NCBI GenBank assembly: GCA_048938895.1
Contig: JBHLLU010000025.1
Span: 1-25,409 of the forward strand
Length of the DNA stretch: 25,409 nucleotides
Reading direction: 5' to 3'
Source of the DNA: Promethearchaeota archaeon
GTDB taxonomy: Archaea; Asgardarchaeota; Lokiarchaeia; Sigyniarchaeales; SOKP01
Part shown: positions 5,315-20,592 of the stretch, in pieces
Numbering within the stretch: position 1 is the first letter of the stretch
Layout: every line of letters starts with the position of its first letter
Made by a program: the position numbers and the translations under genes
Notes under the pieces: generated by a model
Told to the model about the DNA's origin: nothing
Databases searched by the model: none
What the model saw: the letters and a program-made list of their open reading frames with translations, nothing else

Positions 5315-5329
5315 TATAAAAAGAAAAAA
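5315..5329 (-). promoter_or_regulatory. T-tract/TATA promoter motif (TTTTTTCTTTTTATA) for the hef operon
   Basis: Anchor C is 31 nt from ATG 5292. Confidence 0.65.
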
Positions 5330-5340
5330 TTTACAAAAAA

Positions 5341-6852
5341 TTAAAGGGATTGAATAGTCGTTTTAATATAACTTTCAATTTTATTAACCACTTCTGTAAG
5401 ACTGATTCCATTGTTCTCTTCTTTATTAATACTTAATAATACTCTTCGAATGACTTCAAGCGAATAATAAAGTATCTTTGAAAGATAAAATTGGTTTTTG
5501 GCAAGTTTCTTCTGCTGTGTTGCTAACACCATTTGATTATCAAGGACCATGGTTAACGGATCTTTAAGTGAGGGTTTTGATTCCTCTAGGCTTTTATAAG
5601 CAGATAGTTCTTTTGCCCTCTGATCCAACATCCATGTGAGGTTTTTGAGGTCAATCGAGACATGGTTTAACGGTCGAATGAGTGCGATAATAATCCCTCC
5701 CACCAAAATAATTTGCCAGAGTAGAAAGATCTGAGAATAAGAATTCACAAACCTACGATAGAGAAAACCACACATGGCTATACCCACGCTTCTTCCTATA
5801 AGTCCGCTTAAGTTTCCAAGAGAAAATGCGACCGAACGTACTTCAGGAAGATTGATATCTCCCAAGATAGAATATGTAATAGAAAGGGTTGAGGAAGTCA
5901 TAAACGAAAATACCATGAGAAGACCAATAAAAAGGGGAATGGACACAGGGCTTATGGCATAGGCCGTGATTGAAAATCCCGAACCAAGTACTATGGTAAA
6001 TAGCAGAGTGATGATTTTTCCATTAGTTCTTTTCTGATATGCGCTGTCTGCTTTCTTTCCCCATAAAGAGACTCCAAATAATTGAGGAATAAAGACCATA
6101 ATTTGGGTGATCATTGCATTAAAGGGAGTAAAACTTGCATCTGTCCGTAGAAAGGTTACAAAGTAGAAGGTTATCGTACCGACAACAAAATCATGAATAA
6201 AAAAAAGTACTATAAGATTAATATTAGTGGTTGTTTTCGAGAATTTATTCAATTCTATTAGCCCTAAACGATAGTTATAGTCATTTTCAGCATTTCCCCT
6301 TTGAGGAACAGGTACAGAAATAAGTAAGAAGGTGGTTACAATCGAGACCAGAAATAAGATAAATACAAGTAGTCTCCATGAGATCGCTCCTAAAAACAAT
6401 CCAAATAACATAATACCTGCCCCCGTGCCTAGAAACAAAGCCATTCCCAATAAGGCAATGGAATTGGTTCTATTTTCTGAGGGAGAAAGGTCAACGATGA
6501 TTGAGTTGGTAAGAGGTAATAGAGCACCAAATCCGATGGCAGAAATCATCCTCGAAAGAAAAAACGGAATTAGGTCTACTGAGATACAGGTTATAAAGAG
6601 CCCACAAGAATAGAAACATAAGGAAACCACGAGTAGTTTTTTTCGAGGGTAAAAATTTTCAAGGTACGCCCATAGAAATGAAAGAATTCCAGAAAAAAGT
6701 AAAAAGAATGAATGTGTTATTCCCACCACACTGACAGATAACGATAAGCTGTCGGTTATGTCGATGATCAATGGTCCGAATACCGAAACTGATGCCCATT
6801 CTACGATAGTGAGTAAAAATAGAACTATGAAAGTAACTCTATATTTCATCAT
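5341..6852 (-). CDS. MFS transporter (about 12 TM) with ~100-aa soluble C-terminal helical tail
   Basis: MFS patterns 'WAYLENFYPRKKLL' (degenerate motif A), 'SRMISAIGFG', 'DLSPSENRT', 'DINLPEVRSVA'; two hydrophobic 6-helix halves. Confidence 0.88.
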   Translation of the reverse strand: MMKYRVTFIVLFLLTIVEWASVSVFGPLIIDITDSLSLSVSVVGITHSFFLLFSGILSFLWAYLENFYPRKKLLVVSLCFYSCGLFITCISVDLIPFFLSRMISAIGFGALLPLTNSIIVDLSPSENRTNSIALLGMALFLGTGAGIMLFGLFLGAISWRLLVFILFLVSIVTTFLLISVPVPQRGNAENDYNYRLGLIELNKFSKTTTNINLIVLFFIHDFVVGTITFYFVTFLRTDASFTPFNAMITQIMVFIPQLFGVSLWGKKADSAYQKRTNGKIITLLFTIVLGSGFSITAYAISPVSIPLFIGLLMVFSFMTSSTLSITYSILGDINLPEVRSVAFSLGNLSGLIGRSVGIAMCGFLYRRFVNSYSQIFLLWQIILVGGIIIALIRPLNHVSIDLKNLTWMLDQRAKELSAYKSLEESKPSLKDPLTMVLDNQMVLATQQKKLAKNQFYLSKILYYSLEVIRRVLLSINKEENNGISLTEVVNKIESYIKTTIQSL

Positions 6853-6873: not shown

Positions 6874-6900
6874 TTTTTAAAGGAAAATTTAAAGAAAAAA
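6874..6900 (-). promoter_or_regulatory. Two T-tract/TATA motifs (TTTTTTCTTTAAATT; TTTTCCTTTAAAAA) for the MFS gene
   Basis: Anchor Cs are 42 and 30 nt from ATG 6852; could also be terminator tracts of the upstream TFB-like gene. Confidence 0.5.
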
Positions 6901-6922: not shown

Positions 6923-8143
6923 TTATCCTACTCCTGGAGGATCTTTTCCCAGATGATAATTTCTCAATATCAGCTCAAACCATAACATAGGAGCTTTTCT
7001 TTTAAGCTGTGGTTTGTAGCTAATGGTATTATGTACTTCTAAATAACAAACAGAGAGAATATTCGAACCGATATATGGATCTACAATGCCAAATAAATAA
7101 TCATCATTTTCAAGAGTAAATACTTGCCTTGCATTCCCAAATTCAAGTTCAATTCGCTCCTCACCTTCTTCTCGTTCTTTAACAACTTCTTCTTCAAATT
7201 CTATAACGTTTAATTCAACCATAATGCTTTTAATCATTTCAGAAGAGCGAACTAATGTGGTAAATCCTTCTACCTGATAACGATCAAACAGTCGATTTTT
7301 TACCTGTTGTTGGATAGTACTCATTCTAATGTCAAGTAATTCACAAATTGAATTAATTTTTATTTCTTCTTTATACTCACAGAGCGCGGTAATTGACGCA
7401 CACAATCCCGCGATAACGTTATCAGTAGTATTTTTGATCCCGTCCCAGAGCCGATATAGTACTTTCTTAGAGAGGAAGTAAAAGGGCATCCCGAGGTCAA
7501 AATAATTAGTAATTTCTAATAATTTTTGAGAGATATATTTCTGTCTATTTCTTACTGCATAGTTCGGGAAATATGCTTTTATTTGCAGATAGAAGTTATT
7601 AAATTCTTTCTTAGTAAGGTCCGTGATATTTAAAATATCTGAGAGAGGTACTGAGATGATATCAAGTTTAAACCTAAAATAGAGAATAATGGCCACCAGT
7701 TTTTCTACATTTCTAAATTTCGTACCGGGAGCAAATTGAGCTCGAATACTTTTAAAATTGTCTAGAGCTTTTTGTTTTACAGACTCATACTCTTCCAATC
7801 CAAGGCTACTTAAAATCCGTGCAATTTCCCTTTGAGCCTTTATTTCTACGATCTTTTCATTGTCAGTTACTTTGTTGTAGTTATTCAAACGTCTTAAGAC
7901 TCTAAAATGAGGAGAGAGTTGCCGTTCTCTTTTGTTCCCAATCTGAGTATTATGTGCTTTTCGAGCATATTGAAGAACATCATAGTTATAGGGGCGATTA
8001 TACTGGAGTTTCTGTATTTTCAGTACGACAGCACATTCTCTACATACGTATCCCTCAGTTGTTTCAATAATTTCGGTAGAATCACACACATCACAGCGAA
8101 GAGTGGTCTGTGCTACTACTACCGAAGTTTTTTCTATCGTCAT
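6923..8143 (-). CDS. Divergent TFB/TFIIB-like protein (Zn ribbon + two cyclin-like repeats + acidic/extra C-terminal region)
   Basis: CDVC-x14-YVCRECAVV Zn ribbon; linker 'VLRRLNNYN'; repeat 1 'EIARILSSLGL...KLVAIILYF...VPLSDIL'; repeat 2 HTH 'IKINSICELLDIRMSTIQQQVK'. Confidence 0.75.
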   Translation of the reverse strand: MTIEKTSVVVAQTTLRCDVCDSTEIIETTEGYVCRECAVVLKIQKLQYNRPYNYDVLQYARKAHNTQIGNKRERQLSPHFRVLRRLNNYNKVTDNEKIVEIKAQREIARILSSLGLEEYESVKQKALDNFKSIRAQFAPGTKFRNVEKLVAIILYFRFKLDIISVPLSDILNITDLTKKEFNNFYLQIKAYFPNYAVRNRQKYISQKLLEITNYFDLGMPFYFLSKKVLYRLWDGIKNTTDNVIAGLCASITALCEYKEEIKINSICELLDIRMSTIQQQVKNRLFDRYQVEGFTTLVRSSEMIKSIMVELNVIEFEEEVVKEREEGEERIELEFGNARQVFTLENDDYLFGIVDPYIGSNILSVCYLEVHNTISYKPQLKRKAPMLWFELILRNYHLGKDPPGVG

Positions 8144-8200
8144 TTTTTTTGATCACTATTTTTTCTATTTTCACTAAGAAAGTTTTGTGACGGTGTTTGC

Positions 8201-8216
8201 TTTTTAAACCTTACGG
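8201..8216 (-). promoter_or_regulatory. Candidate conventional BRE-TATA for the TFB-like gene (CCGTAAGG-TTTAAAAA)
   Basis: TATA-like box preceded by a purine-containing BRE-like stretch ~60 nt upstream of ATG 8143; AGTGATC SD-like site near the start. Confidence 0.4.
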
Positions 8217-8354
8217 TTGAGATCGATATTTGTGCGTAGGGACTTTCTATCGCCCGATTCAAATTTAGATCTAACTATAAAAACCCCACTTTTTTCATTT
8301 CATTTATCATTGACATTTTTGTACATATTAAAAGAATCGAGCATGGATGACGCA

Positions 8355-8437
8355 CTTCTGATCTATCTTCCGGAATAGCCCTAACTTTTTTCAGGGAGCT
8401 TTTCCAGATGATATAGTCGATATGGAGAGATCAGGAG
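8355..8437. other. Extended imperfect stem-loop in divergent intergenic region
   Basis: CTTCTGATCT (8355-8364) pairs with AGATCAGGAG (8428-8437), one G-U pair. Inner arm 8365-8382 pairs imperfectly with 8393-8412. Confidence 0.45.
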
Positions 8438-8480
8438 AAAATGTACATTTGTGTAAAAAATCGGAAACATGGATGTAAAT

Positions 8481-8495
8481 TTTTTTCTTTATAAA
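8481..8495 (+). promoter_or_regulatory. T-tract/TATA promoter motif (TTTTTTCTTTATAAA) for the protease-RadB-like operon
   Basis: Anchor C is 30 nt from ATG 8517; divergent intergenic region, so not a terminator. Confidence 0.7.
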
Positions 8496-8516
8496 GGGTG
8501 AGAGAATTAGAATGAT

Positions 8517-9278
8517 ATGTTCGGACAAGTATTACTCTTTTCACTATTAATTTTCCCTATGATGTATATCTTGGGCTTTATTATAGAACATGCCCTTTTT
8601 AGTCGAGATATGGGAAAAGCAGGAAATATGATAAAAAATCTTGTATTCTTTGTAGGAGTTATTGTCCATGAATTATCTCACCGGATAATGTGTGCTTTGA
8701 CAGGAGTTCCCACAGACGGCATCTCAGTTAAATATCGAGATAAATATGGTCAAGTAAATCCCAATGGTTCAGTAAGTCCCCGAAATATGTATCAAATAAA
8801 CTTCATGCAAGGAGTGTTGATTAGTTTTGCTCCCTTATTGATCGGAGTTTGGGTTATTTATCTATTTCTTGTTATAGCATCTAATCCTTTTTTCGATCCA
8901 GTGATTCGAGTTATTGCTGGTGTATGTGCATTTTCGGTGTTTATTACTCTTGCACCCTCTCAAGCAGATCTTTCTATGGTTAAAATTTCCTTTCAAAACG
9001 ATCCCTCTCAAGGTATCTATAAGATTACTTTAGTCCTAGCTGCATTTTTACTCTCATGGATACTGGTAGGAATCTATAATATCGTATTTCCTGTAGAATT
9101 TTTATATTATTTTATCATCATTGGATTTTATTTTGGATTAAAATATACCATCACCTTCTTGAAATGGATTATCAATAAGATACGGTTCCGTTCAGGAGTT
9201 CCCCACTCCGCCGCAGGCTATAGAAGGTACGCCCGACGACATACTAAACCAAAAAAAGCTTATGGAGGGCAACCATGA
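8517..9278 (+). CDS. Integral membrane Zn metalloprotease (HExxH; M50/DUF3267-like)
   Basis: GVIVHELSH within a hydrophobic helix, 'SFAPLL', 'APSQADL' (candidate third ligand Asp), ~6 TM segments, basic tail. Confidence 0.8.
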   Translation: MFGQVLLFSLLIFPMMYILGFIIEHALFSRDMGKAGNMIKNLVFFVGVIVHELSHRIMCALTGVPTDGISVKYRDKYGQVNPNGSVSPRNMYQINFMQGVLISFAPLLIGVWVIYLFLVIASNPFFDPVIRVIAGVCAFSVFITLAPSQADLSMVKISFQNDPSQGIYKITLVLAAFLLSWILVGIYNIVFPVEFLYYFIIIGFYFGLKYTITFLKWIINKIRFRSGVPHSAAGYRRYARRHTKPKKAYGGQP

Positions 9279-10340: not shown

Positions 10341-10355
10341 TTTTTTCTTTAAATA
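10341..10355 (+). promoter_or_regulatory. T-tract/TATA promoter motif (TTTTTTCTTTAAATA) for radA
   Basis: Anchor C is 62 nt from ATG 10409; the leader contains an SD. Confidence 0.65.
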
Positions 10356-10408: not shown

Positions 10409-11623
10409 ATGGCAGATTTAAGTCAAATAAAGGGAATTAACGCTCGTCAGATCAAACTTTTACTAGAAAACGGGATTAGCACTGCGGAAGCACTAGCTAT
10501 GTCTCCAAGTGGTACTGTTGCTGATATTGATGGTTTAGGAGATAAAACCGCAAAAAAACTCATTTGGAATGCCCGTAATGCACTGGGAATGACTGATTTC
10601 ATACAGGCAAAAGACATTGATGAGAATGTCGAATTCATAACCACTGGTTCTTCAGAGTTAAATAAAATTTTAGGTGGTGGATTCCAAACAGGAAAGTTAA
10701 CGGAAGTATATGGACCCTTCAAGTCAGGGAAAACTAACCTTGCTCACACTATTTCAGTTACCTCTCAACTTCCCGAAAAGAAAGGAGGGATAAATACATC
10801 TGTAGCCTATATTGATACGGAGAATACTTTTTCTAAGGAAAAGATTAAGCGAATTGCAAAACGGTTTGGACTCGATCCTAATGAAACTCTTTCTCGAATA
10901 TTTCACGCTCGGATTTACTCTTCTGATCATCAAACACAGATGATACAGAAGGCAGAAACACTCTGCAAGACTCGTGGCGTACGCCTAATAGTAATTGACA
11001 GTTTAATGGCTTTATTACGCGCAGAATATGTAGGCATTGGTCAATTAGCCCCACGTCAAGCTTTACTAAATAATATTATTCACACTTTGTCGAGGATTGC
11101 AGAAACATACAATTGTGCTGTACTACTTACCAATCAGGTCGCAGTTAAGATGATGGGTATGTTCTCAACTGATGACGCTATTGGCGGCAATATTGTAGCC
11201 CATGGTTGTCATTTTCGAGTAATGTTCAAGACCAAAGGATTTTCGTCAAATAACTCTCTAAAACGCAGGGCAGTGATAGTAGACGCTCCCGACCTTCCTC
11301 CTGAAGAGTGTGAATTTTTTATTACCCCCGCAGGCATTGCAGATACCGACAAAGTAGAGATTCCCAACGCCCCAGAATTAGCGTTTGATATGGAGACATT
11401 ATATGAAGAACAAGAATCTTCCTCAGAAGAAAACCAAGATATATCCTTAATTTCGGTGAAGGGAATCGGTAAAGGAACTGCGGAAGGTCTTGCGGCATTG
11501 GGTGTGACCTCCATCGATGCTCTGCTTGAAGCTGACCCTGAAGATTTATCCTCAAAATTGAGTGGTGCTTCAGTTAATAAAGTACAAGAATGGCAAAAAA
11601 ATGCGCAGGAGCTACAGACTTAA
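10409..11623 (+). CDS. radA: RadA/Rad51-family recombinase with additional C-terminal HhH domain
   Basis: N-terminal (HhH)2, FIQA polymerisation motif, TTGS.ELN.ILGGG, GPFKSGKT, YIDTENTF, VIDSLMALLRAEY, TNQV, GGNIVAH; acidic linker then 'SVKGIGKGTAEGLAALGV'. AGGTGA SD. Confidence 0.92.
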   Translation: MADLSQIKGINARQIKLLLENGISTAEALAMSPSGTVADIDGLGDKTAKKLIWNARNALGMTDFIQAKDIDENVEFITTGSSELNKILGGGFQTGKLTEVYGPFKSGKTNLAHTISVTSQLPEKKGGINTSVAYIDTENTFSKEKIKRIAKRFGLDPNETLSRIFHARIYSSDHQTQMIQKAETLCKTRGVRLIVIDSLMALLRAEYVGIGQLAPRQALLNNIIHTLSRIAETYNCAVLLTNQVAVKMMGMFSTDDAIGGNIVAHGCHFRVMFKTKGFSSNNSLKRRAVIVDAPDLPPEECEFFITPAGIADTDKVEIPNAPELAFDMETLYEEQESSSEENQDISLISVKGIGKGTAEGLAALGVTSIDALLEADPEDLSSKLSGASVNKVQEWQKNAQELQT

Positions 11624-11700: not shown

Positions 11701-12716
11701 TCTTCCTCGTAAGTTGCACGTCCCTTAAAACGTCCAATGTTCCTATTTTTACTTTTGACTACAATAACTATGACCGCTGTAATTATCACCCCAAAAAAGG
11801 AGAGCAATCCCACGGTCCATTCCACTGGCATTTTAAATATATTCCTTGGGGTTGTACTGTTGGTTGGATCAGTCTGATTAGGATCCTGTATTCCACTGAT
11901 TCTATATCGCTCGATAATCGCATAGGCAATATTAGTATAGTTGACATCACTTTTTACCCCGATATCCATCGTGTAAAGTCCATCAATCGCTGTTCCAAAG
12001 AAGATACGATTTAAACCGGTGATGGGTGCCATCGTCTGATTAGTGTATATAATATAGTCAATGACAACAGGATCATAGAGCGTAAAATTTACCGAAACAA
12101 AATCACTAATTGTCGCAGCAATGGGCGAGACTCTCCCAAAACAAAACCAGTACATATAATCGGTTTTAAGCTCCACTGGCGGTGATATTATCATCCCATC
12201 CTGAAAGCGAGTAACATCATAATAAATCATGTTCTGAAGATCAGTAGCCGTAAGTTTGTCGTGAAGGCATTTTATCCATTTTTCAACTCGAATATAAAGA
12301 TTAAGATTGTAGGTAGATATAGTGGTAAATTCGATAGTATGATTGCCAGTAACCGCACAACCGAAAGGAATTTCATGATAATCTGTGTCTACATGGGTTG
12401 TAGTAAGATCTGCTTCAAAAATATCGAAATATTTCCCATCTGGATCTGTCACTGTAATGACAAGGTTACAGTTATGAGAAGTCACAATTTCCACCCAGAT
12501 AAGATAGGTATAGGGTTTCTCGAAATAGAGATCTTCAAAGGTTAAAGAATCAGATGGAGCTAGGAAGGCATATACCTTATCAGGAAATTCGGAATCACTG
12601 GATTTTACTTCTGGGTCGTTTGTCAAATTCACCGAAACAGCATCGATAGAAGGAAATAGCAAACAAAAAATAATTAAAACTGATAGTAGAATTTTAATTC
12701 CTCTCCTAATAGCCAT
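11697..12716 (-). CDS. Secreted, C-terminally membrane-anchored surface protein with two tandem beta-rich repeats
   Basis: Signal peptide MAIRRGIKILLSVLIIFCLLFP; repeats 'ITVTDPDG...IPFGCAVTGNHTI' and 'FTLYDPVV...IFFGTAIDGLYTM'; N-x-T-rich linker; TM helix then KSKNR. Confidence 0.75.
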   Translation of the reverse strand: MAIRRGIKILLSVLIIFCLLFPSIDAVSVNLTNDPEVKSSDSEFPDKVYAFLAPSDSLTFEDLYFEKPYTYLIWVEIVTSHNCNLVITVTDPDGKYFDIFEADLTTTHVDTDYHEIPFGCAVTGNHTIEFTTISTYNLNLYIRVEKWIKCLHDKLTATDLQNMIYYDVTRFQDGMIISPPVELKTDYMYWFCFGRVSPIAATISDFVSVNFTLYDPVVIDYIIYTNQTMAPITGLNRIFFGTAIDGLYTMDIGVKSDVNYTNIAYAIIERYRISGIQDPNQTDPTNSTTPRNIFKMPVEWTVGLLSFFGVIITAVIVIVVKSKNRNIGRFKGRATYEEE

Positions 12717-13032
12717 ACACCTCTAATTCGGTAAATTCTTCTTCCAATTCGTGAATAATTCCGCACTTATCAAACCTAACACAATTAAAACAGGGTTGAT
12801 CTGCCCAGAAATATGCCTTTTGGTTTGGGCGTTCGATAATAAGAACCGGAAAACCCCCATGTGGACATTGCATTGCTGAGTTCGAGATCTTTCCTCTTTT
12901 TGGTAAGGCATACGACATTTCGCATGCTTCGCATTTCATAAACCGTTTATAACTATTCGTTTTGAAGATAGTAAGAGAACATCCACAGGTAGGGCAACTA
13001 CCCACTTCTTTAATCTTTTTCATGAGTCTCAT
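12706..13032 (-). CDS. Stand-alone topoisomerase IA C-terminal-type Zn-ribbon protein
   Basis: 'GSCPTCG.SL.I.KT..KRFMKCEACE.SYALPKRGKI....QCPHGGFPVL' matches the pattern of archaeal TopA C4 ribbons; extra CFNC..C cluster; no catalytic domain. Confidence 0.75.
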   Translation of the reverse strand: MRLMKKIKEVGSCPTCGCSLTIFKTNSYKRFMKCEACEMSYALPKRGKISNSAMQCPHGGFPVLIIERPNQKAYFWADQPCFNCVRFDKCGIIHELEEEFTELEVYGY

Positions 13033-13064: not shown

Positions 13065-13109
13065 TATTTAAAGAAAAAATAATTTCCGAGTGAAATTTTT
13101 CTTTATATA
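13065..13109. promoter_or_regulatory. Back-to-back T-tract/TATA motifs (minus 13065-13079 TTTTTTCTTTAAATA; plus 13096-13109 TTTTTCTTTATATA)
   Basis: 41 nt from ATG 13032 and 33 nt from ATG 13134 in a 101-nt divergent gap. Confidence 0.7.
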
Positions 13110-13133: not shown

Positions 13134-13355
13134 ATGTTGCTAGATTATTTTGATCAAATGGGAGAAGCGGTAGAATTTCTAATTGCTCTCGGCTCTTTGG
13201 TGGGAGTTCTAGGACTTGTTGTAGGTATTATCGGGTTCATTTCCCTTGGTCAATTCCGCCGTCATCAGATGATAGGAGTAATAGTTGTATCCATTATGTT
13301 GTTAGTTGTGTGTGGCTCTGCCACTGGATTCAAATATTTCCATATTCGTCATTAA
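13134..13355 (+). CDS. Small 2-TM membrane protein (73 aa), pilin-sized
   Basis: Two Gly-rich hydrophobic helices separated by the basic loop QFRRHQ; own promoter-like box 33 nt upstream. Confidence 0.7.
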   Translation: MLLDYFDQMGEAVEFLIALGSLVGVLGLVVGIIGFISLGQFRRHQMIGVIVVSIMLLVVCGSATGFKYFHIRH

Positions 13356-13777: not shown

Positions 13778-13792
13778 TTTATAAAGAAAAAA
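13778..13792 (-). promoter_or_regulatory. T-tract/TATA promoter motif (TTTTTTCTTTATAAA) for the 3-TM gene
   Basis: 30 nt from ATG 13756; overlaps the perfect palindrome TTTCTTTATAAAGAAA (13774-13789). Confidence 0.65.
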
Positions 13793-14019: not shown

Positions 14020-14033
14020 TTTTTCTTTTTATA
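14020..14033 (+). promoter_or_regulatory. T-tract/TATA promoter motif (TTTTTCTTTTTATA) for fen
   Basis: 33 nt from TTG 14058; divergent region. Confidence 0.65.
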
Positions 14034-14057: not shown

Positions 14058-15152
14058 TTGGGAATTAAACTTCAAGATCTTATTCAAAGAGAAATAATCG
14101 GAATTAATGAGTTAGCAGGAAAAATTATTGCAGTCGACGCTCCTAACATCATCATGGGGTTGTTTAATTTTGCAAGAAAGGACCTTGATGGCTCTTATGC
14201 CGGATTGATATTAGATAGAACTCAACGGCCAATTTCTCACCTCTATGGGCTTTTGTATCGACTCAACTTTTATTATTCGAAGAATATTTTTCCTATCTTT
14301 TGTTTTGACGGCAGAGATTCTGAGTTGAAAAAATTAGTTACGAAAGATCAACTTAGGGATTTTCGTTTTACCCAGCAATGGTATGAGCAGGCAATTCAAA
14401 ATCGAGACAAGGAAAAAGCACGACATATTGCGTTAAGTAAGGAATATTTATGGCAGAATATTATTAAAGAATCTAAAGAATTGTTAAATGCTTTAGGAGT
14501 TCCTTGTATAGAGTCACCCGCGTCAGCAGAGTCGCAATGTGCCTACTTAGTCAATCAAGGGATTGTTCATTATTCCAATTCCCAAGATTTTGATTCTCTC
14601 CTATTTGGATGCCCTCATCTAATCCAGAATTTATCGAAATCGCTCCGTAGAAAAATACAAGGGAAATGGACCTATACTAAGATAACACCGTTTCATGTTG
14701 ATTTACACAAAAACTTAAAGAAGTTAGGAATAGATCAGTTTCAGTTAGTTGATCTAGGGTTAATGGTGGGCACAGATTATTTTCAAGGGATCAGAGGGAT
14801 TGGTCCAAAAAAAGCACTAACGTTTATTCAACAATTCAAGCAAATTGAAAATGTTATAAGCCAAGAAAAGTATAATTATGATTTTGAGCAATTGACTCCT
14901 GACATCATAAAAAGAGTACGAAAATTGTATTTATTTCCAGAGGTTAATACCTCACAGCAAGAACTTTATTGGAACTTACCTCTTATGTCTCATGTTGTTG
15001 ACTTACTGTGCTATGAACATTATCTCAATAAAAATCGAGTAAAAAATAACTTACACAAATTAGTTGCTAATTATGAGAAATGTAGAACCCATTTTCTTAA
15101 TTTGCGAGATAAACCTCGTTCAGTTCAACGTACATTAGACAGTATATTTTAG
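14058..15152 (+). CDS. fen: Flap endonuclease-1 family nuclease (divergent)
   Basis: MGI.LQDL, GKIIAVDAPN, ISHLYGLLYR, FCFDG, AESQCAYL, SQDFDSLLFG, GTDYFQGIRGIGPKKAL (H3TH), C-terminal PIP box QRTLDSIF. TTG start. Confidence 0.92.
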   Translation: MGIKLQDLIQREIIGINELAGKIIAVDAPNIIMGLFNFARKDLDGSYAGLILDRTQRPISHLYGLLYRLNFYYSKNIFPIFCFDGRDSELKKLVTKDQLRDFRFTQQWYEQAIQNRDKEKARHIALSKEYLWQNIIKESKELLNALGVPCIESPASAESQCAYLVNQGIVHYSNSQDFDSLLFGCPHLIQNLSKSLRRKIQGKWTYTKITPFHVDLHKNLKKLGIDQFQLVDLGLMVGTDYFQGIRGIGPKKALTFIQQFKQIENVISQEKYNYDFEQLTPDIIKRVRKLYLFPEVNTSQQELYWNLPLMSHVVDLLCYEHYLNKNRVKNNLHKLVANYEKCRTHFLNLRDKPRSVQRTLDSIF

Positions 15153-15272
15153 TTTTGCATAATTGATATTAAAAGATATTATTTAGCTCAAAGACATTTC
15201 ATTATATTTTTTTATTTAAATAAAATGAACTTAAGCATTATTTAGAAAAAATTAATTTCTTCCCAAATTACG

Positions 15273-15860
15273 ATGACTCAAATAATAAAAAAAGAAATTC
15301 CTTGGAGCAGTCTTTCTGGAGCGCATAAATCACCTCAAAAAGAGCTAAATGGTCAAATTTTAAGTTGCTTATTTAGGGAGGAGTGCTTTGTATCATTTTC
15401 TCAAGATATTAAAGCTCTTTCGGAAATGGAAATGAGACAGATTGCCACCAAAGTACGCCTCCCTTATAAAATTGTGCGCTCTGTTATTACTAAGTTTCTT
15501 GTGGATTTGTTCTATTTTCGAAGGTTTTTACGAAGCTATAAATTCACGTATGCCTATACCAAAAGTCTTAGAAAACTAGTTATTTATCTCCATAAGCTCC
15601 ATCGTCTTGCTCCTGTATTCGATTTTCCTCGCGCAAAAGAGAATGCTCGAATCCTCAAACACAATCTATCACTTCGATGCTTTTTACCCCAGTTTGCTAC
15701 TCAACTTGCAATAGTGTTGTATGTAACCGATCTAAATGATCACAATAAGCAGTTTGTTATTAAACAGTCGAATTTACGATTATTATGCGATTGTAGTGCA
15801 TATGCCTTCCACAGGACTCGAAATAAACTCGGATTAGGAAGTAAAAAATCTTATCCCTAA
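15273..15860 (+). CDS. Basic protein with C-terminal TFB cyclin-repeat/HTH-like region, no Zn ribbon
   Basis: 'QLAIVLYVT...IKQSNLRLLCDCSAYAFHRTRNKL' resembles TFB repeat 2 (AAA.LY...TQ.EIA....S...IR.RYK.L). Confidence 0.55.
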   Translation: MTQIIKKEIPWSSLSGAHKSPQKELNGQILSCLFREECFVSFSQDIKALSEMEMRQIATKVRLPYKIVRSVITKFLVDLFYFRRFLRSYKFTYAYTKSLRKLVIYLHKLHRLAPVFDFPRAKENARILKHNLSLRCFLPQFATQLAIVLYVTDLNDHNKQFVIKQSNLRLLCDCSAYAFHRTRNKLGLGSKKSYP

Positions 15861-15870
15861 ATATTCAGAT

Positions 15871-15885
15871 TTTTTTCTTTATATA
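15871..15885 (+). promoter_or_regulatory. T-tract/TATA promoter motif (TTTTTTCTTTATATA) for the GNAT gene
   Basis: 54 nt from ATG 15931. Confidence 0.6.
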
Positions 15886-15888
15886 GAA

Positions 15889-17121
15889 ATGCTCGAATTG
15901 GATATAATAAAAACTCAAAGTGAAATTAAAATGGTTCAAACTATACAAAAATTACAGAAAAGCTATATTAAAATAAGCGAAACTGAAGATCTAACAGAAA
16001 TTGAGCTTGCTTTAAGAAATTTTTTGCGTAAATATACCCCACAAGTTAAGGAAAATGTGATTGTTAGTCTCTTAGGATATTTGGGACAAAAATTCCACAC
16101 TCCAGAATATAAAATAAAAGTTTTTATTGCCTATTATAATAGTGAACCCTATGGGATGGTCATATCTGACTTAAATCCTGAATATAAGAGTTATGGAAGA
16201 AAATGCGGAACATTTGGATGGTTATTCTGTCAAGATCAGCAAATTTGTTATGAACTGCTAAAGCAGTGTGAATTGTTTATTAAAGAAAACAGACTACGAA
16301 AAATCCGAGGTCCGATTAATTTTCCTAAGAATGAATTCGGCTTCGGTCTTCAAATTACAGGTACAGATGAACAGTTGTTGTATGGAGTTGCTCCTGCTAA
16401 TGAAAATCCAGATATCTATGATTATCTAGTAAGTTTAGGATATATCCCTGAATCAGAATATACCTGTATGCATGTTGTTGAAGAATCCTGGAAGAAAGGC
16501 AACTCGCTAGATAGCAGACTTAAATTATGCTGTTTGCCGGTCGATGAAGTAGAAGAGAAAATTGATGAGATTGTAGAATTAGCAGGAGATTCCTTCAGTT
16601 CACTGCTTCCTGATACATCAGGAGGTGGGAGGGAGAATGTAAGGGAGCTTTTGCATCTTGCTACTCATGTACCTAAGCAATATTTTCATTATCATCAAAT
16701 CTATGATCCTTTCGAGCGATACAACCATATTCAGGAATTTATTGAAGGGTGGAAGGATGTAGATCTTGAAGAGATGGTCACGGTATTTCCGATGGCTCTA
16801 GAACGGAATACCAATAAACTTATTGGAATCTTAATTGGAATCCTTGATTATTATCAGTGCTGGAATGGTCAGTATGTCTCACGGATTAACGTCCATACCG
16901 CAATGGTACGTAAAGGCTATAATGGAAAAGGAGTATTCTCTTCTCTAAACAACTTCGGGCAAGCCACCAACCGATCAATGTGGGGTACCGAATACTTTGA
17001 GGGAACGGCCATCTGGACTAGAAATTCGAAAGGAGTGAACAATGAAGATGCCGTCAACTCTATTTTTCCACACTGCCAACCTAACAGGAGGCATGTGGTC
17101 TTTGAAAAACGCGTGAAATAA
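15889..17121 (+). CDS. Tandem GNAT-fold protein (YghO-like N-acyltransferase); real start possibly ATG 15931
   Basis: 'CGTFGW', 'KIRGPINF...GL', 'NP..YDYL..LGY', 'HTAMVRKGYNGKGV' (acyl-CoA motif A). A promoter-like box ends 3 nt before ATG 15889, favouring 15931. Confidence 0.7.
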   Translation: MLELDIIKTQSEIKMVQTIQKLQKSYIKISETEDLTEIELALRNFLRKYTPQVKENVIVSLLGYLGQKFHTPEYKIKVFIAYYNSEPYGMVISDLNPEYKSYGRKCGTFGWLFCQDQQICYELLKQCELFIKENRLRKIRGPINFPKNEFGFGLQITGTDEQLLYGVAPANENPDIYDYLVSLGYIPESEYTCMHVVEESWKKGNSLDSRLKLCCLPVDEVEEKIDEIVELAGDSFSSLLPDTSGGGRENVRELLHLATHVPKQYFHYHQIYDPFERYNHIQEFIEGWKDVDLEEMVTVFPMALERNTNKLIGILIGILDYYQCWNGQYVSRINVHTAMVRKGYNGKGVFSSLNNFGQATNRSMWGTEYFEGTAIWTRNSKGVNNEDAVNSIFPHCQPNRRHVVFEKRVK

Positions 17122-17229: not shown

Positions 17230-17263
17230 TATTTAAAGAAAAAGACATTTTTTTCTTTATATA
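17230..17263. promoter_or_regulatory. Back-to-back T-tract/TATA motifs (minus 17230-17243; plus 17249-17263)
   Basis: Plus copy is 56 nt from ATG 17311 (Roadblock operon); minus copy is 31 nt from ATG 17207. Confidence 0.6.
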
Positions 17264-20288: not shown

Positions 20289-20534
20289 TTAACTTGGGGT
20301 TTCGAGAACACTTATCACAATTTCAGGCTCATCACCCACATAATCTTGTTGGGTAACTTCTGCCTGATATCGCATAATTCTATGGTTACCCACTATGATA
20401 TTGTATTTCGCCAGAAAGCTCAAAATACTCTCATTTTCGAATTCTAACCATTGCATTTTTCTTTCTACTTCCCGAGTTTTCGTGTAGGAGTGTAAATTTC
20501 TTCTTATTTTTAGTAGTAAAAATCTTACATTCAT
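20289..20534 (-). CDS. Small hypothetical protein (81 aa)
   Basis: AGTGATC SD-like site and promoter-like box (20579-20592) upstream; fills the gap convergent to the previous gene. Confidence 0.6.
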   Translation of the reverse strand: MNVRFLLLKIRRNLHSYTKTREVERKMQWLEFENESILSFLAKYNIIVGNHRIMRYQAEVTQQDYVGDEPEIVISVLETPS

Positions 20535-20578: not shown

Positions 20579-20592
20579 TATTTAAAGAAAAA
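20579..20592 (-). promoter_or_regulatory. T-tract/TATA promoter motif (TTTTTCTTTAAATA) for the 81-aa gene
   Basis: 53 nt from ATG 20534; divergent region. Confidence 0.6.

Follow-up and report, generated by a model that had tools for sequence, protein, structure and literature searches.

What reads a promoter in which a run of T occupies the place of the B recognition element (BRE) is the question raised by a 25,409-nt stretch of a Promethearchaeota archaeon genome (assembly GCA_048938895.1, contig JBHLLU010000025.1, positions 1 to 25,409), hereafter the window. This window makes up the initial 25.4 kb of a contig of 62.4 kb (C152) in a 4.65-Mb assembly (G000) of Lokiarchaeia-type Asgard. It carries a conserved island of recombination and repair genes in which one promoter element, the T-run box, recurs, together with the gene of a divergent relative of the archaeal initiation factor TFB, which we designate TFBL (TFB-like). 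We propose, with moderate confidence and from comparative sequence analysis, that TFBL is a promoter-selective initiation factor that would read the T-run of the island promoters.

A divergent TFB homologue with a rewritten recognition helix

The segment flagged by the first-pass annotation comprises the TFBL gene and, at 8144-8216, its leader and promoter. Retrieval of 123 homologues and an AlphaFold model resolve the following parts:

6923..8143, minus strand: TFBL gene, 406 aa plus stop codon (list of open reading frames, ORFs)
8033..8095, minus strand: zinc ribbon (CxxC...CxxC), residues 17-37 (alignment; two beta hairpins in the model)
7862..8032, minus strand: linker, residues 38-94, in place of the B-reader and B-linker and without EWRAF (alignment)
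7556..7861, minus strand: cyclin repeat 1, residues ~95-196 (model, structure match)
7208..7555, minus strand: cyclin repeat 2, residues ~197-312 (model, structure match, hhalign)
7286..7330, minus strand: repeat-2 recognition helix, residues 272-286, IRMSTIQQQVKNRLF (alignment, hhalign)
6926..7207, minus strand: C-terminal tail, residues 313-406, with an acidic stretch (E315-E334), GNAxxVFN, two weak strands and K400-D-P-P403

TFBL is a full-length, divergent homologue of TFB by both fold and homology. The model is confident across the cyclin-repeat core (pLDDT, the predicted local distance difference test, 86-96 for ~residues 95-312) and aligns in VIA-align with the core of P. woesei TFB (1d3u_B) at Z 18.0 and a root-mean-square deviation of 2.9 A, with 196/201 residues aligned. 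TFB and TFIIB chains in general score Z 15-18 across both repeats, and the best Foldseek matches are TFIIB/TFB (TM 0.78), followed by Brf1 and Brf2. When the TFBL family profile is compared by hhalign with one built from the 11 ordinary TFBs of this genome, the probability is 98.0% (E 1.8e-13, 256 columns), and the alignment runs from the zinc ribbon to the helix-turn-helix (HTH) that ends the second repeat. The zinc ribbon and two cyclin-like repeats noted in the first-pass annotation are therefore upheld, as is the TFIIB fold on which it had made its reading depend: the ribbon cysteines C17, C20, C34 and C37 are invariant in 94/94 aligned homologues, and the ribbon aligns with that of the genome's own TFBs. 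The acidic stretch and roughly 90 extra residues that it described are likewise present as E315-E334 and a tail of ~95 residues reaching residue 406. This tail is poorly modelled even with the 94-sequence alignment (pLDDT <66 overall, 56-66 for residues ~330-370 and <50 for 374-398), and an Atlas search with residues 311-406 returned no usable match.

The relationship is nevertheless remote. TFBL shares 12-18% identity with canonical TFB/TFIIB and has no match to the Pfam models TFIIB (PF00382) or TF_Zn_Ribbon (PF08271) at E <= 0.01; it is absent from the genome's 22 PF00382 matches, and PF08271 appears in precomputed annotation for a few of its homologues. NCBIfam PRK00423 (NF001658) scores it at 16.7 bits against a cut-off of 384. 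A phmmer search of TFBL against the PDB gave one irrelevant match (E 0.46), a profile of 32 homologues gave weak matches there to TFIIB repeat 1 (best E 0.038), and PADLOC reported nothing for TFBL. In a quick tree without outgroup, built from every second row (16) of the 32-row family alignment and the 11 ordinary TFBs, the two groups are split by a branch of ~3.4 changes/site with Shimodaira-Hasegawa-like approximate likelihood ratio supports of 99 and 100.

The most distinctive change lies where TFB reads DNA. Residues 272-280 (IRMSTIQQQ) align by hhalign with VTEVTVRNR of ordinary TFBs, and this helix, which the first-pass annotation had picked out as altered, is indeed non-standard throughout the family: [IV][RKQ]MS[TA][IV]Q.QV in 32/32 aligned members, against [VI][TS]E.T.R.R in 11/11 ordinary TFBs of the genome. 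M274, S275, Q278 and Q280 are invariant across 94 sequences. The BRE-reading helix has thus been rewritten and then held fixed across the TFBL family. Replacement of two Arg by two Gln would suit the reading of A:T pairs over G-containing BREs, and [RKQ] at position 273 could read a single C:G pair; the observed changes (Arg to Gln twice, and Thr/Ser to Arg/Lys/Gln at 273) would fit a shift from G-containing purine BREs to an element of A:T pairs with one C:G.

The linker has diverged as well. The B-reader motif GPEWRAF of ordinary TFB is set by hhalign opposite LQY--NRPYN, in agreement with the earlier remark that EWRAF is not recognisable, and the GLSTMI region of the B-linker faces a family-specific TQIGxxRER, of which TQIG may be the counterpart of GLSTxI. 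Both family motifs, LQYxRPY and TQIGxxRER, are highly conserved within the TFBL family, and linker residues 43-68 are modelled at pLDDT <50.

The ordinary machinery of this genome is itself expanded, with 11 ordinary TFB genes (contigs C144, C39, C91, C116, C65, C110, C47, C37, C79, C38 and C102), two of which appear N-terminally short in the ORF calls, and three genes for the TATA-binding protein, TBP (C61, C120 and C37). This expansion of general factors is comparable to that of haloarchaea. A prediction of the complex between the TFBL core (95-312) and the TBP core from C61 gave no answer (score 0.00 against a mark of 0.32) and bears neither way.

The T-run box and the promoter of TFBL

With at most one mismatch allowed, the window contains 16 copies of the T-run box, TTTTTCTTTAWATA, where 0.41 would be expected (sd 0.67); 0/100 shuffles reach 16. 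The box consists of TTTTTTC followed by TTTAWATA, i.e., a near-consensus archaeal TATA element with a T-run in the BRE position, one invariant C at a fixed place and a fixed spacing to TATA. Because a position weight matrix scan was trained on contig C152 and is hence biased, the statistics rest on counts of the exact pattern:

Window (25.4 kb): 7 exact boxes, reversed control 0
Contig C152 (62.4 kb): 9 exact boxes, reversed control 0
Around TFBL (18.1 kb): 6 exact boxes, no control count
Around the 11 ordinary TFB genes (170.5 kb): 1 exact box, no control count
Whole genome (4.65 Mb): 19 exact boxes, reversed control 15

When one genome per species was scanned, 63 loci with a TFBL relative came up, all in metagenome-assembled genomes of Promethearchaeota (Asgard) and several per genome in some; many of these loci stop at contig ends. 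Together they span 974 kb and hold 132 exact boxes against 2 in the reversed control, and 24 boxes against 0 fall in the 23 loci where an extra TFBL paralogue lies outside the island.

Boxes also behave as promoters. The window and the 63 related loci together supplied 173 instances of the core TTTCTTTWWATA. The unconstrained positions -1, -2 and -3 upstream of the core are T in 94, 91 and 70% of instances, respectively, and the base 22 nt past the TATA box is A in 75%, with T/C before it in 74%. This initiator signature, T(A/G) at the usual distance, independently supports promoters that fire in the predicted direction. Promoters surveyed crudely across the genome, with rough gene calling, favoured A only weakly at positions -3/-4 ahead of TTTAWATA. 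Of the 16 window boxes, 12 are followed at 4-54 nt by the start of a listed ORF on the correct strand, and a 13th implies a shorter u137. Boxes and the genes that they precede are as follows:

5315..5328, minus strand: box, one mismatch, before the operon u195, Hef-like helicase, DUF1922 (5292-2081)
6886..6899, minus strand: box, one mismatch, before a major facilitator superfamily (MFS) transporter (5341-6852)
8482..8495, plus strand: box, one mismatch, of the divergent neighbour u253 (ATG at 8517, 22 nt past the TATA box, a leaderless geometry)
10342..10355, plus strand: strict box before the island RadA (10409-11623)
13065..13078, minus strand: strict box before u108 (12706-13032)
13096..13109, plus strand: strict box before u73 (13134-13355)
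13778..13791, minus strand: box, one mismatch, inside the listed 5' end of u137
14020..14033, plus strand: box, one mismatch, before the island FEN1 (14058-15152)
15209..15222, plus strand: box, one mismatch, before u195b (15273-15860)
15872..15885, plus strand: strict box before u410 (15889-17121)
17230..17243, minus strand, and 17250..17263, plus strand: pair of strict boxes, back to back and 6 nt apart
20579..20592, minus strand: strict box before u81 (20289-20534)

The units served are u195/Hef-like/DUF1922, the MFS transporter, u253/u111/RadB-like ATPase, RadA, u108/u339, u73, u137, FEN1, u195b, u410, u182/Arf-like GTPase/u581, u81 and a 67-aa ORF. From the position of its box, the real start of u137 is probably Met14 at ~13756, 22 nt past the TATA box and so leaderless. 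In the back-to-back pair, the plus-strand box precedes u182, the Arf-like GTPase and u581; the minus-strand box faces the 3' end of u410 with no ORF of at least 50 aa behind it and might drive an antisense or small RNA. Two more strict boxes lie further along the contig, at 39.9 and 45.6 kb, before an 869-aa secreted prenyltransferase-like alpha-alpha-toroid protein (L009:14979-17588) and a 237-aa unknown protein (L010:881-1594) adjoining a CoiA-like nuclease gene, respectively.

TFBL itself is the exception. As the first-pass annotation had noticed, it is the one unit of the block without the T-tract motif (0/16 window boxes lie upstream of it), and its own promoter is of the ordinary kind:

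8201..8216, minus strand: TFBL promoter, a purine-rich BRE-like CCGTAAGG (8216-8209) followed by the TATA box TTTAAAAA (8208-8201)
8151..8156, minus strand: GTGATC in the leader, Shine-Dalgarno-like, which we take to match the anti-Shine-Dalgarno sequence

The same arrangement holds family-wide, so that the conventional promoter suggested earlier is confirmed. Orthologous upstream regions with 130 nt and a clear start could be taken from 41 of the 63 loci. In 28/41, TTTAAAA is present with, on average, 5.4 purines among the 7 nt before it, and 32/41 have GTGAT/C near the ATG; the strict T-run box is found in 0/41 and a loose T-only form in 1/41. Many TFBL upstream regions (L011-L061) also feature an inverted repeat, GAGAAGAAG..CTTCTTCTC or GAGTAGAC..GTCTACTC, ~40-60 nt upstream of the TATA box, which may be an operator controlling TFBL. 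This repeat is weak or absent in the window itself, where 8100-8560 contains no inverted repeat of note; the window as a whole has no Rfam family and no tRNA.

The island and its distribution among Asgard archaea

By tblastn with the proteins of the window, the conserved gene order of the island is FEN1, u137, u73, u108, u339, RadA, RadB-like, u111, u253 and TFBL, continuing past TFBL with a variable slot, u195, the Hef-like helicase, DUF1922, u103 and a Hel308-like helicase. Matches to individual genes across the 63 related loci are distributed as follows:

u253 (8517..9278, plus strand): 39/63
RadB-like: 36/63
u111: 33/63
Hef-like helicase: 31/63
u195: 31/63
DUF1922: 30/63
RadA: 26/63
FEN1: 12/63

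Boxes recur with these genes when counted by the looser pattern TTTYTTTWWATA. A box precedes RadA in 21/26 loci, mostly 53-61 nt from the estimated ATG (one at 68) and with differing flanks. It precedes u108 in 12/19, u253 in 8/39, u195 in 7/31 and u137 in 5/13 loci, and TFBL in 1/63 (a T-only form 147 nt away). The MFS transporter has no match in any of the 63 related loci; it fills the variable slot between TFBL and u195, yet has gained a one-mismatch box.

The tightest neighbour of TFBL is u253, a membrane protein with several hydrophobic segments, an HExxH-type motif (HELSH) and a weak Peptidase_M50B-like match. The two genes form a divergent pair in 38/55 loci with enough upstream DNA, mostly 286-624 nt apart, and these include paralogue loci outside the island. 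Several small zinc-ribbon proteins are encoded in the island as well. Its enzymes are spare copies; elsewhere in the genome lie two better-scoring genes for RadA/Rad51 (C93 and C83) and a second, better-scoring FEN1 (C130). Neither FEN1 nor the Hef-like protein of the island reaches its NCBIfam cut-off. RadA of the island (404 aa), with 70-85% identity between loci, is much better conserved than TFBL (37-61%) and carries an extra C-terminal helix-hairpin-helix-like segment (residues ~345-402).

Among 400 Asgard genomes searched at E <= 1e-20, TFBL is present in 97 of the 134 genomes of one GTDB family (f1) besides the window's own, in 2/14 genomes of a sister family (f3; weak, ~1e-22) and in 0/251 of the remainder. 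The box follows a similar pattern. In many f1 genomes, exact boxes are two to four times as frequent as the reversed control (G183, 51 v 14; G179, 38 v 10; G227, 43 v 13; G177, 29 v 7), and some f1 genomes, including the window's own, lack a clear excess (G000, 19 v 15; G211, 14 v 17). Most genomes of other families show none (G143, 6 v 12; G138, 4 v 11), and the f3 genome G144 has 14 v 5. Co-occurrence of the paralogue and the motif, which the first-pass annotation had named as a check, is found across 63 related loci and, by genome, in one Lokiarchaeial family only.

The 37 f1 assemblies that gave no TFBL match allow a closer look at this association, and the absence was confirmed by direct search in five of them (G158, G180, G181, G187 and G211). 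Four of these (G180, G181, G187 and G211) also lack the island-type RadA, their best match having 38-42% identity, and in G158 (L078/L083) that gene is split over two contig ends. The box-cluster contig of G187 (L099, G187:C117) ends 1.7 kb past FEN1. The box cluster of G204 sits on an 8.1-kb contig (L098, G204:C125) with RadA (78% identity), FEN1 and u108; this contig starts within u253, directly next to where TFBL would lie. In the three cases that can be resolved (G158, G187 and G204), the apparent absence of TFBL is thus an assembly break in the island, a region that seems hard to assemble or bin and so inflates such absences. No intact boxed island without TFBL was found among the f1 assemblies lacking TFBL that were checked; the three apparent instances of the motif persisting without the gene are these contig breaks.

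The wider family is large. An exhaustive profile search returned 518 clusters (50% identity) at E <= 0.001, 363 at <= 1e-10 and 158 at <= 1e-30, and some genomes carry 2-4 TFBL-type copies. We aligned 32 representatives, chosen by eye from 150 listed to span the E-value range, with the distant homologue from G143 described below. Most keep the ribbon, Y.RPY, TQIG..ER, KNT[TK]D and the helix I.MST[IV](Q/N).QVK. In 15 of them, [SG]K[GD]PP stands a few residues from the C-terminus of tails that otherwise differ in length and sequence; the copy in TFBL of the window is K400-D-P-P403 (6935-6946), and the motif looks like a short docking or turnover signal. Seven representatives (P0244, P0245, P0254, P0255, P0259, P0264 and P0265) have the TFBL cyclin core without ribbon or tail and feature repeated N-terminal HTH-like segments instead.

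Two groups vary in the recognition helix. TFBL of genus g2 has the variant MSTINYQV (47-54% identity to P0186, 4 genomes); three of its loci are rearranged, yet carry TTTTTCTTTATAAA-type boxes. In the sister family, the closed 4.32-Mb genome G143 encodes a 411-aa distant homologue (profile E 2.7e-22) with the helix ITASTVYSH, which keeps IQYN and GTQIGNxSER and clusters with TFBL in the tree, where its branch is long; FEN1-, u108-, Arf-, u182- and u253-like genes lie around it in partial synteny. No f1-type T-run box is found in the region of this homologue. The sequence TTTTTGCTTTTATAAA occurs exactly twice in the 4.32 Mb, both times before ORFs and within 7 kb around the homologue:

L105 (G143:C1:1738000-1757999), ~8741-8756, minus strand: first copy of TTTTTGCTTTTATAAA
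L105, ~15751-15766, plus strand: second copy of TTTTTGCTTTTATAAA

This twin box is suggestive, although two sites are too few for a judgement on covariation. As a tentative thought, to which we attach only a small measure of belief, TFBL could be the prototype of a large set of 'sigma-like' archaeal TFBs peculiar to this lineage, each with its own BRE-type element and with the shared K[GD]PP motif as a switch-off or docking handle, perhaps via u253.

Proposed promoter selection by TFBL and competing readings

The repeat-2 HTH of TFB inserts into the major groove immediately upstream of TATA, where it reads the BRE and determines the direction of transcription (PMC4581349, PMC7289017), and the BRE that it meets there is normally A-rich or purine-rich (PMC7289017). 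This is exactly the place of the T-run, which supports TFBL as its reader. In the mechanism that we propose, TBP would sit on the near-consensus TATA element of the box, the repeat-2 helix of TFBL would read the seven bases just upstream (TTTTTTC), and its zinc ribbon would recruit RNA polymerase. The outcome would be activation rather than repression, switching on RadA, the RadB-like protein, FEN1 and the Hef-like and Hel308-like helicases, plus the membrane and GTPase genes. TFBL itself would be made from its purine-BRE promoter, read by one of the 11 ordinary TFBs; under such a promoter, the host would decide when the island fires, as with an alternative sigma factor. The suggestion in the first-pass annotation that an altered helix could recognise the poly-T element, and that a conventional promoter fits the top of a cascade, is therefore supported in part, by the fold, the fixed altered helix, the T-run at the BRE position, the co-occurrence and the separate promoter, whereas binding of the T-run and the cascade are steps that we infer.

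Several observations weigh against this proposal. The link between TFBL and the box is co-location within one family and may trace to a single ancestral event, and another island protein, such as the zinc-ribbon protein u108 or DUF1922, could read the box. The curated TFIIB models of Pfam and NCBIfam reject TFBL. With 19 boxes genome-wide against 15 in the control, enrichment, and hence the regulon, is essentially limited to the island. Given the unrecognisable B-reader and the low-confidence linker, start-site setting and DNA opening may differ from those of TFB. The g2 helix variant is accompanied by the same kind of box, so no covariation of helix and box is seen. Finally, for G180, G181 and G211, poor binning and loss of the entire island would look alike.

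The strongest alternative, which we consider unlikely but serious, is that TFBL acts as a TFB3-like co-activator joining complexes of ordinary TFB, the T-run being read by another protein or acting through DNA shape as a stiff A-tract that keeps histones away. T-runs can exclude histones, no B-reader can be recognised in TFBL, and among the products of the island are several small zinc-ribbon proteins. TFBL nevertheless keeps both cyclin repeats and a fixed, distinct recognition helix, whereas TFB3 is truncated, and the invariant C and fixed TATA spacing of the box fit base reading better than shape alone. A precedent for such a co-activator is Sulfolobus TFB3, which acts in trans with ordinary TFB on DNA-damage genes (PMC7289017).

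It is improbable that TFBL is instead a brake, occupying T-run promoters or TBP and, for want of a working B-reader, blocking initiation until removed through the K[GD]PP motif or u253. The divergent linker, the recurrence of K[GD]PP in subfamilies with otherwise different tails and the conserved divergent TFBL/u253 pair (38/55 loci) are all compatible with such a role, as is the control of Sulfolobus TFB2 by degradation (10.64898/2026.09.06.749720). However, LQYxRPY and TQIGxxRER are highly conserved, which points to a retained contact, in the simplest case with polymerase; the zinc ribbon, too, is intact, and nothing ties u253 or the K[GD]PP motif to turnover.

We regard as decidedly improbable that TFBL and the boxes merely share a location, with TFBL serving other promoters and an ordinary TFB or TBP reading the T-run. 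The genome does offer 11 TFBs and 3 TBPs as candidates, but the standard T.R.R helix is retained in each of the 11 ordinary TFBs, whose genes show no enrichment of boxes around them (1 in 170.5 kb), and boxes also accompany the extra TFBL paralogues that lie outside the island (24 v 0 in the control). The idea that TFBL is an Orc6- or cyclin-like replication or recombination protein working with the island enzymes is hardly credible: it draws on the DNA-repair neighbours and on weaker fold matches (Orc6 8s0b_F at Z 12.0, cyclins at Z 11.7-12.8), but TFB/TFIIB chains reach Z 15-18 over both repeats, and the zinc ribbon and linker align with TFB as well, a ribbon of a kind that, to our knowledge, Orc6 does not have.

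How TFBL relates to known systems can be judged from its parts. Like canonical TFB/TFIIB (PDB 1D3U/1AIS), it has a ribbon, a linker and two cyclin repeats ending in an HTH, with an element at the BRE position. It differs in the unrecognisable B-reader motif, the ~95-residue tail, the helix (T-E-V-T-x-R-x-R there, R-M-S-T-x-Q-x-Q in TFBL) and a presumed element that is T-rich rather than A/purine-rich. Multiple general factors, here 11 TFBs and 3 TBPs, are shared with haloarchaea, whose TFB paralogues, as far as we know, keep the standard helix and differ subtly in their BREs; TFBL is far removed from ordinary TFBs (~3.4 changes/site) and tied to one sharply defined box and one island. The expanded TFB/TBP sets of haloarchaea give some promoter specificity (PMC7289017).

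The Sulfolobales paralogues TFB3 and TFB2 resemble TFBL in being dedicated to a gene set. TFB3 is usually defined as a truncated paralogue without the cyclin core and works in trans with TFB1. TFBL, in contrast to these paralogues, is full length with both repeats and has a different helix and a presumed element of different sequence. The TFB3 set concerns DNA damage and exchange (PMC7289017), and TFB2 drives a cyclic wave, is itself regulated and serves promoters whose BRE is like that of TFB1 with a different spacing (10.64898/2026.09.06.749720).

Brf1 and Brf2 share with TFBL a TFIIB core followed by a C-terminal extension (6f42_V, Z 16.2; 4roc_A, Z 14.3), and JGI labels some family members 'TFIIIB Brf1 subunit/TFIIB'. 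Their cores match TFBL no better than TFIIB does, however, and archaea have one polymerase; as far as its poor model (pLDDT <66) allows a comparison, the tail has no detectable likeness to Brf homology blocks. The proposed arrangement also resembles that of bacterial extracytoplasmic function (ECF) sigma factors: a dedicated factor with its own promoter element, a compact regulon that includes its neighbours, separate control of the factor gene and a membrane metalloprotease-like gene (u253) next door. Any kinship with TFBL is only distant, if it exists at all, and no anti-factor has been identified for TFBL; an argument for sigma/TFB homology is made in PMC4581349.

Asgard mobile elements and viruses also encode TFB homologues, some with Rad51-like recombinases and nucleases, as reported in 10.1101/2021.07.29.453957. 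The TFBL island, in contrast, sits among core metabolic genes and is syntenic across genomes; with no TFBL relative in the viral contig collection, we rejected a viral or mobile origin of TFBL. A full-text literature search found nothing on this Asgard TFBL family or on T-run promoters in Asgard archaea; further background is given by a 2026 Asgard review (PMC12993045) and a cell-cycle review (PMC7617429). Overall, dedicated TFB paralogues are known, but we did not find in print a rewritten BRE-reading helix paired with a sharply different, conserved element at the BRE position.

TFBL also points to a conserved island of recombination and repair genes in Lokiarchaeia, under a control of its own. 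If TFBL reads the T-run, it would be the cleanest natural case of sigma-factor-like promoter selection by the archaeal/eukaryotic initiation machinery, and one protein with one 15-bp box would provide a simple test system in which to study the gain of new DNA specificity by factors of the TFIIB family, a step on which the origin of Brf and Rrn7-type factors rests.

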